The notes beneath the pieces are model-generated. The model had not been told where the DNA came from and did not search any database. It saw only the letters and a list, made by a program, of their open reading frames with translations. This document shows positions 60,759 to 61,334 of a DNA stretch of 64,000 bases, piece after piece. The stretch's first letter is position 1, and every line of letters begins with the position of its first letter. The position numbers were made by a program, and so were the translations under genes. Origin of the DNA: Escherichia coli (lineage in GTDB: Bacteria; Pseudomonadota; Gammaproteobacteria; Enterobacterales; Enterobacteriaceae); assembly GCF_024502345.1 (NCBI RefSeq), contig NZ_JALDNN010000001.1. One strand, 5' to 3'.

Positions 60759-61334
60759 ATGGAATACTTTGATATGCGTAAAATGTCGGTAAATCTGTGG
60801 CGAAATGCTGCCGGTGAAACGCGAGAAATTTGCACTTTCCCACCGGCAAAACGTGATTTTTACTGGCGTGCCAGCATTGCATCCATCGCGGCGAATGGGG
60901 AGTTTTCTTTGTTTCCCGGTATGGAAAGGATAGTGACGTTGCTGGAAGGCGGCGAGATGTTCCTTGAAAGCACAGACCGCTTTAACCATACCTTAAAACC
61001 GTTACAGCCTTTTGCCTTTGCGGCGGACCAGGTGGTAAAAGCGAAACTGACGGCAGGGCAGATGTCGATGGATTTCAATATTATGACGCGCCTGGATGTC
61101 TGTAAGGCGAAAGTCAGAATTGCCGAACGTACGTTTACTACCTTTGGCTCACGCGGCGGGGTGGTGTTTGTAATTAACGGGGCGTGGCAACTGGGCGACA
61201 AACTGCTCACTACCGACCAGGGCGCGTGCTGGTTCGATGGCAGGCACACCCTGCGGCTTTTACAACCGCAAGGTAAACTGTTGTTCAGTGAAATCAACTG
61301 GCTCGCTGGTCATTCGCCGGATCAAGTTCAGTAA
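60759..61334 (+). CDS. ves: HutD-family protein Ves
   Basis: 191 aa from [14 protein letters not shown]... Confidence 0.85.

Follow-up and report, generated by a model that had tools for sequence, protein, structure and literature searches.

The 41-bp overlap of the convergent ves and cho genes of Escherichia coli as a probable by-product of unconserved tails on abutting genes

The ves and cho genes of Escherichia coli are convergently transcribed, and their coding sequences overlap by 41 bp at their 3′ ends. Analysis of a 64,000-nucleotide stretch of E. coli DNA (contig NZ_JALDNN010000001.1, referred to here as the window), together with the corresponding locus in relatives, makes it likely that this overlap is an incidental by-product of unconserved tails on two abutting genes and not a device. 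According to this explanation the conserved cores of the two proteins end 10 nt apart, and each reading frame would have run on antisense into its partner until it met a stop codon by chance; such run-on would have added six residues to Ves and nine to Cho, which gives the 41-bp overlap. The tail of Ves in Escherichia and Citrobacter would derive from loss of the stop codon that follows His185, and the overlap would have neither a coding nor a regulatory role of its own. The main consequence of the layout is the absence of a terminator between the two genes.

The pair lies at approximately 58.7-63.8 kb of the window, in the E. coli chromosomal surroundings astE-spy-ves / cho-nadE / osmE, with the following coordinates:

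60759..61334, plus strand: ves coding sequence, 191 aa, HutD family; ATG at 60759, TAA at 61332-61334; identical to the K-12 annotation
61294..62181, minus strand: cho coding sequence, 295 aa; GTG start at 62179-62181, TGA at 61294-61296; identical to the K-12 annotation
61294..61334, both strands: convergent overlap of the two coding sequences, 41 bp with both stop codons counted

In the list of open reading frames ves is the ATG-started part of a longer frame (60696..61334, plus strand), and the TGA stop codon of cho appears as TCA on the plus strand at 61294-61296. The 41-bp 3′ overlap described in the initial annotation is thus borne out by the coordinates of the reading frames and by the stop codons in the sequence. 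The same annotation supposed that a different cho start could remove the overlap, but the start is irrelevant here: the overlap is bounded on either side by a stop codon, and re-annotation of a start is therefore unable to abolish it. An identical overlap is present in RefSeq K-12 MG1655 (cho 1823515..1824402, ves 1824362..1824937), and a 41-bp overlap is also annotated in E. coli FDAARGOS_943, CRE389, muskdeer13-4 and HCP4S3_I4, which are 96.2-99.8% identical to the window. Within the overlap the first position of each Ves codon stands opposite the first position of a Cho codon, Ves position 2 opposite Cho position 3, and Ves position 3 opposite Cho position 2.

The identities of both genes are well founded. 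For Ves the Pfam HutD profile gives an E-value of 9e-44 and the NCBIfam Ves equivalog one of 7.5e-129; for Cho the NCBIfam excinuclease Cho equivalog gives 1.3e-173, and the N-terminal GIY-YIG region of the protein matches UvrC structures. The locus was found in 5,424 of 5,426 complete E. coli genomes, and both reading frames are genuine genes with orthologues of 65-100% identity at 63 ves loci and 82 cho loci, with synteny kept. The two genes are unrelated and converge with no intergenic spacer.

Each coding sequence carries into the overlap a short tail that lies beyond the conserved part of its protein:

61314..61334, plus strand: Ves tail, six codons (SPDQVQ) and the stop, past the conserved ...WLxGH; the codon of His185 ends at 61313
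61294..61323, minus strand: Cho tail, nine codons (DPANDQRAS) and the stop, past ...YEI(I/T)EL; the Leu286 codon lies at 61324-61326

Comparison of the C-termini of 47 named loci shows that the conserved core of Ves runs to ...SEIxWLxGH, ending with His185. The SPDQVQ tail is confined to Escherichia and Citrobacter; in most other genera a stop codon directly follows His185, and a C-terminus of another kind occurs in two cases, Franconibacter and the pair of loci L046 and L078 that is described below. After Leu286 the Cho proteins of the same 47 loci carry between zero and nine variable residues, which differ among genera and even inside Escherichia, and the NCBIfam Cho profile covers residues 1-287 only. 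The conserved cores accordingly end at 61313 (Ves) and 61324 (Cho), 10 nt apart and without overlapping, and the overlap lies beyond both. The Ves tail runs antisense over the last conserved codons of Cho, and the Cho tail antisense over the last conserved codons of Ves. Solved structures (HutD, 5FCC and 1YLL; UvrC N-terminal domain, 1YCZ) stop short of both C-terminal tails.

The length of the overlap does not exceed what abutting genes would be expected to produce by chance. The 43 long open reading frames of the window were taken as a sample of coding sequence, and their antisense frame was read in the same phase, with position 1 opposite position 1. In this frame a stop occurs at 4.6% of codons and the median run is 14 codons, so that under the same 43-frame model a run of at least six codons has a probability of 0.75 and a run of at least nine codons one of 0.65. 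The tails of six and nine codons are below the 14-codon median, and the abutting of the two genes suffices to explain the size of the overlap.

Variation among relatives bears on the question of whether the overlap is itself maintained. The comparison set was built from 80 loci encoding Cho relatives, one genome per species, in which both genes and their stop codons were located; the counts given here cover 82 cho loci of the Enterobacteriaceae, 63 of them with ves. The gene order osmE-nadE-cho-(ves)-spy-astE is kept across the family, and the distance between the two stop codons ranges over the 63 loci from an overlap of 45 bp to a gap of 48 nt. Escherichia and Citrobacter share the 41-bp overlap, whereas Enterobacter, Leclercia, Lelliottia, Silvania, Kosakonia, Phytobacter, Franconibacter and others have overlaps of 45, 32, 23, 15, 10, 7 or 4 bp. 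A few genomes have gaps of 3, 28, 46 or 48 nt between cho and ves, and at three loci (Cedecea and two Enterobacter strains) the genes are parted by an insert of approximately 1.8 kb. No ves was found at 19 of the 82 loci, the gene being absent from Salmonella, Klebsiella, Raoultella, Pluralibacter, Intestinirhabdus and Citrobacter sedlakii. The identities of Ves and Cho to their E. coli counterparts drop in parallel from genus to genus, which suggests an ancestral presence of ves at this site, followed by several losses.

A small number of loci in the collection depart from the usual arrangement in other ways. A record titled Chryseobacterium sp. 18061 (L046) has the Enterobacteriaceae order osmE-nadE-cho-ves-spy-astE and closely matches Citrobacter sp. 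18056 (L078); this Chryseobacterium-labelled contig is probably a mislabelled or contaminated assembly. Ves there is longer by 19 residues at its C-terminus, which makes the overlap 45 bp. E. coli CRE389 has an IS1 element between spy and ves, near the ves promoter, and FDAARGOS_943 has one between astE and spy, together with an astE pseudogene. In HCP4S3_I4 cho is cut by the end of a Mu-like prophage carrying Mom/Com genes.

Substitutions within the 41 bp, examined in the 15 unique sequences that share an overlap of this length, indicate how the two frames divide the bases between them. At 61294-61313 the variation falls on Ves third positions (six of seven), which are Cho second positions. 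Because the variation sits on these positions, this segment is under purifying selection for Ves while the Cho tail is free to change. The opposite end of the overlap, 61324-61334, is mostly invariant: three of its 11 sites vary, comprising two of four Cho third positions and one of four Ves third positions. The flanks of the overlap show the usual third-position pattern of whichever single gene is present. Judged from this codon-position pattern, every base of the overlap is held by one protein only and not by both.

It could be argued that one of the two C-termini is simply wrong, through a sequencing error or frameshift, and that the true genes do not overlap. Long convergent overlaps in databases have indeed often been put down to error, with 124 of 178 overlaps of more than 60 bp classed as 3′-end extension errors (Palleja et al. 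2008, PMC2478687), and the tails of Ves and Cho are unconserved. However, the overlap of 41 bp is shorter than the 60-bp length at which overlaps came under suspicion and errors dominate, the same frames and stops are found in the window, in K-12 and in the four other annotated E. coli, and the same stops recur in 17 of 17 Escherichia and Citrobacter sequences, window included. Since the stops were the same in every genome checked, this explanation was rejected, and its probability is close to negligible.

The layout raises the question of where the two transcripts end. No site resembling a terminator was detected by a consensus scan of 61200-61450, around the junction. Folds of single sequences brought out one local palindrome, described below, and folding 53-55 orthologous sequences to a consensus revealed no conserved hairpin past the cho or ves stop on either strand; the junction gave alifold energies of 0 to -1 kcal/mol with mean z-scores of -0.2 to -0.5. 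T-runs around the junction reach four at most, the tables of PMC7815308 list no Term-seq 3′ end there, and the arrangement expected of a bidirectional intrinsic terminator, a G+C-rich hairpin with an A-run and a T-run across or between the stops, is absent from the cho/ves junction. A bidirectional stem-loop terminator might nonetheless be embedded in the coding overlap, with both transcripts ending at fixed points near their stops, as happens at numerous convergent gene pairs of E. coli. An 11-bp-stem palindrome at 61248-61274, which lies inside ves and 20-46 nt past the cho stop and has a z-score of about -2.4, is the natural candidate, and 146 of 165 E. coli excludons have predicted overlapping terminators. 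The palindrome, however, is found in E. coli only, T-runs are missing from both of its strands, and it is not kept in Citrobacter or in more distant relatives; the consensus fold of 55 sequences is structureless, with no conserved structure past the ves stop. As double-stranded RNAs have moreover been captured 100-400 nt beyond the stops, an embedded terminator is very unlikely.

The first terminator-like element that read-through from cho meets is on the far side of ves, approximately 660 nt past the cho stop:

60576..60634, both strands: spy-ves hairpin, the intrinsic terminator of spy; T-run at 60567-60572 on the minus strand

This hairpin has a folding energy of -41 kcal/mol on the plus strand and -33 kcal/mol on the minus strand, with T-runs on both sides, and the spy terminator has been mapped by a Term-seq 3′ end at window position 60636 (PMC7815308). 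In every examined genus lacking ves this hairpin is placed right after the cho stop or at most approximately 40 nt beyond it (L007, L010, L011, L018, L053, L068 and L070), and there it is a terminator common to cho and spy. A further arrangement is seen in Enterobacter sp. ENT03, Pseudescherichia vulneris, Escherichia sp. ESNIH1 and UBA7338, in which the 28-48-nt spacer between cho and ves is formed by a strong hairpin, rich in G+C (-30 to -43 kcal/mol) and lacking T-runs.

Overlapping transcription of the two genes is documented in published data. The cho-ves pair is named among 165 convergent excludons of MG1655, detected by RNA-seq coverage in at least half of 58 transcriptomes (Sanmartin et al. 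2025, PMC12288877), and short RNA duplexes from both genes have been captured by the p19 protein:

61501..61521, both strands: 21-bp double-stranded RNA in cho, 167-187 nt past the ves stop (PMC7373196, Table S3); two mismatches to K-12
61172..61192, both strands: 21-bp double-stranded RNA in ves, 102-122 nt past the cho stop (PMC7373196, Table S3)
60884..60905, both strands: 22-bp double-stranded RNA in ves, 389-410 nt past the cho stop (PMC7373196, Table S3)

These duplexes are RNase III-type products with reads from both strands, at 1-11 RPM (PMC7373196). Since they come from inside both genes, both strands are transcribed well past the stop codons and well beyond the 41 bp. The captured RNAs fit read-through from each gene into the other; unmapped internal antisense promoters could be an alternative source, and the promoter scan found no sigma-70-like promoter. 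Both read-through RNAs carry stretches rich in C over G, compatible with the loading of Rho. Rho silences untranslated antisense RNA, and it is for this reason that we infer that the read-through is ended by Rho. With no terminator between the genes, each mRNA would then read antisense into its partner until stopped by Rho, and that of cho until the spy hairpin at the furthest.

How much such mutual transcription could matter depends on the promoters that drive it, for which the sequence offers one element each:

60679..60706, plus strand: sigma-28 (FliA) promoter motif of ves, AACGTAAATCACCCGAGTTGCCGATAAC; an exact match to a FliA ChIP-seq motif (PMC4183435)
62197..62212, minus strand: LexA box core, CTGGATAGATAACCAG, of the form CTG-N10-CAG, 31 nt upstream of the cho start

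The promoter motif TAAA-N15-GCCGATAA, by which membership of the sigma-28 regulon was assessed, thus lies upstream of ves, and a similar motif is found there in 54 of the 63 loci, against a rough estimate of approximately 0.01 expected per locus. FliA binding at the ves site has a fold-above-threshold score of 44, and expression of ves amounts to 18 normalized units in motile MG1655 and to 0 in a fliA deletion (PMC4183435). The conservation of the motif suggests that ves has belonged to the flagellar regulon for a long time. The cho gene carries the motif of the SOS regulon, with a LexA box whose distance from the start is unchanged in 81 of 82 loci, and is listed as LexA-regulated (PMC6590174), which confirms its earlier description as a DNA-damage-inducible gene. 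Bicyclomycin-sensitive, Rho-dependent 3′ ends have been mapped in the 5′ part of cho, at 62157 (minus strand, 24 nt inside the gene) and at approximately 61912 (PMC7815308), suggesting that premature termination limits its expression. In the nadE-cho intergenic region, a candidate REP/BIME-like repeat (...aaggcgttcacgccgcatccggcg...) at approximately 62270-62370 follows nadE and precedes the cho promoter.

The initial annotation had proposed that transcription through ves could antagonise cho. The stronger the interfering promoter, the greater the repression by antisense transcription, and weak targets are affected most (PMC4731013). Given this scaling and the low output of ves, antagonism of cho by ves would probably be a weak effect. 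The reverse direction, in which the induced cho transcript crosses ves and its promoter, is no less plausible, because this transcript meets no terminator before it has passed all of ves. One specific form of such a link would have SOS-induced cho transcription, running antisense over ves and its sigma-28 promoter, shut ves off, while ves transcription in the flagellar phase damps basal cho expression. This is a rather improbable scheme; if true, it would connect the SOS and flagellar regulons in a small way and be a modest addition to what is known of E. coli regulation.

In its general form the regulatory reading holds that the absence of a terminator has been selected and that the pair is a functional excludon, in which transcribing one gene represses the other, through colliding polymerases and through cutting of the RNA duplex by RNase III, so that the SOS and sigma-28 regulons are coupled in a mutually exclusive manner, in either direction. 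Much of the evidence already given is consistent with it: the cho-ves pair is on the list of 165, both genes have yielded double-stranded RNAs, each promoter is part of a different, conserved regulon, a cho transcript could cover ves and its promoter before its first terminator, and tight packing is preserved in most genera that have both genes. The last of these is a counterpoint to an incidental origin, as selection for transcript overlap could keep the genes packed end to end. Against this, the ves output of 18 normalized units is low where repression scales with promoter strength, the counts of p19 duplexes are low, ves is absent from Salmonella, Klebsiella, Raoultella, Pluralibacter and C. 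sedlakii, and a strong hairpin stands between the genes in P. vulneris, Escherichia sp. ESNIH1, UBA7338 and Enterobacter sp. ENT03. The lineages without ves and the genomes insulated by a hairpin argue that any coupling of the two genes is dispensable, and a functional excludon is accordingly considered unlikely. Under the preferred explanation, an incidental overlap of abutting genes, mutual interference would be small, since ves depends on a sigma-28 promoter and cho on a LexA-repressed one, and both of these promoters are weak.

The overlap of ves and cho is already known: it is present in the reference annotation, it belongs to a well-described class, and the pair has been catalogued as a candidate excludon. 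What is added here is the detail that the tails are unconserved, that the shared bases are each owned by one gene, that the common terminator has been displaced and that relatives display alternative states, namely a common terminator, an inserted hairpin or a missing partner. The pair is a clean example of how two overlapping frames divide their common bases.

Three known systems invite comparison. Bidirectional intrinsic terminators common to convergent genes were reportedly described by Ju and colleagues in 2019 using SEnd-seq. They are also the subject of a preprint (Wang et al. 2022, 10.1101/2022.10.23.513370). The genera without ves resemble this system, in that a single long hairpin right after the cho stop, preceded by an A-run and followed by a T-containing stretch, serves both cho and spy, whereas in E. 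coli the hairpin is on the far side of ves and there is none at the cho/ves junction. To excludons the likeness is that ves and cho are a convergent pair with overlapping transcripts, listed by name, from both members of which RNase III-type duplexes arise; as a class, excludon pairs also show higher synteny than other gene pairs (PMC12288877). The differences are that the mutually exclusive expression by which the class is defined is hypothetical for ves and cho, that the promoters of both are weak and that ves is missing in several related genera.

The closest match is to convergent gene pairs that overlap in their coding sequences. Rogozin and colleagues are said to have described in 2002 how convergent, tail-to-tail overlapping pairs arise by displacement of a stop codon and C-terminal extension. 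In E. coli such overlaps are common: 75 convergent overlapping pairs of coding sequences have been counted (Huvet & Stumpf 2014, PMC4161906). As in this class, ves and cho are two bona fide genes that overlap at their 3′ ends only and in which an ancestral stop has been read past; their overlap lies outside the conserved cores, varies in length among relatives and is shorter than 60 bp. The pair is distinguished by the fact that both partners add a tail and that the loss of the Ves stop can be assigned to the Escherichia/Citrobacter lineage, and is otherwise without notable difference. On every point tested, ves/cho is a convergent overlapping pair formed by C-terminal extension.
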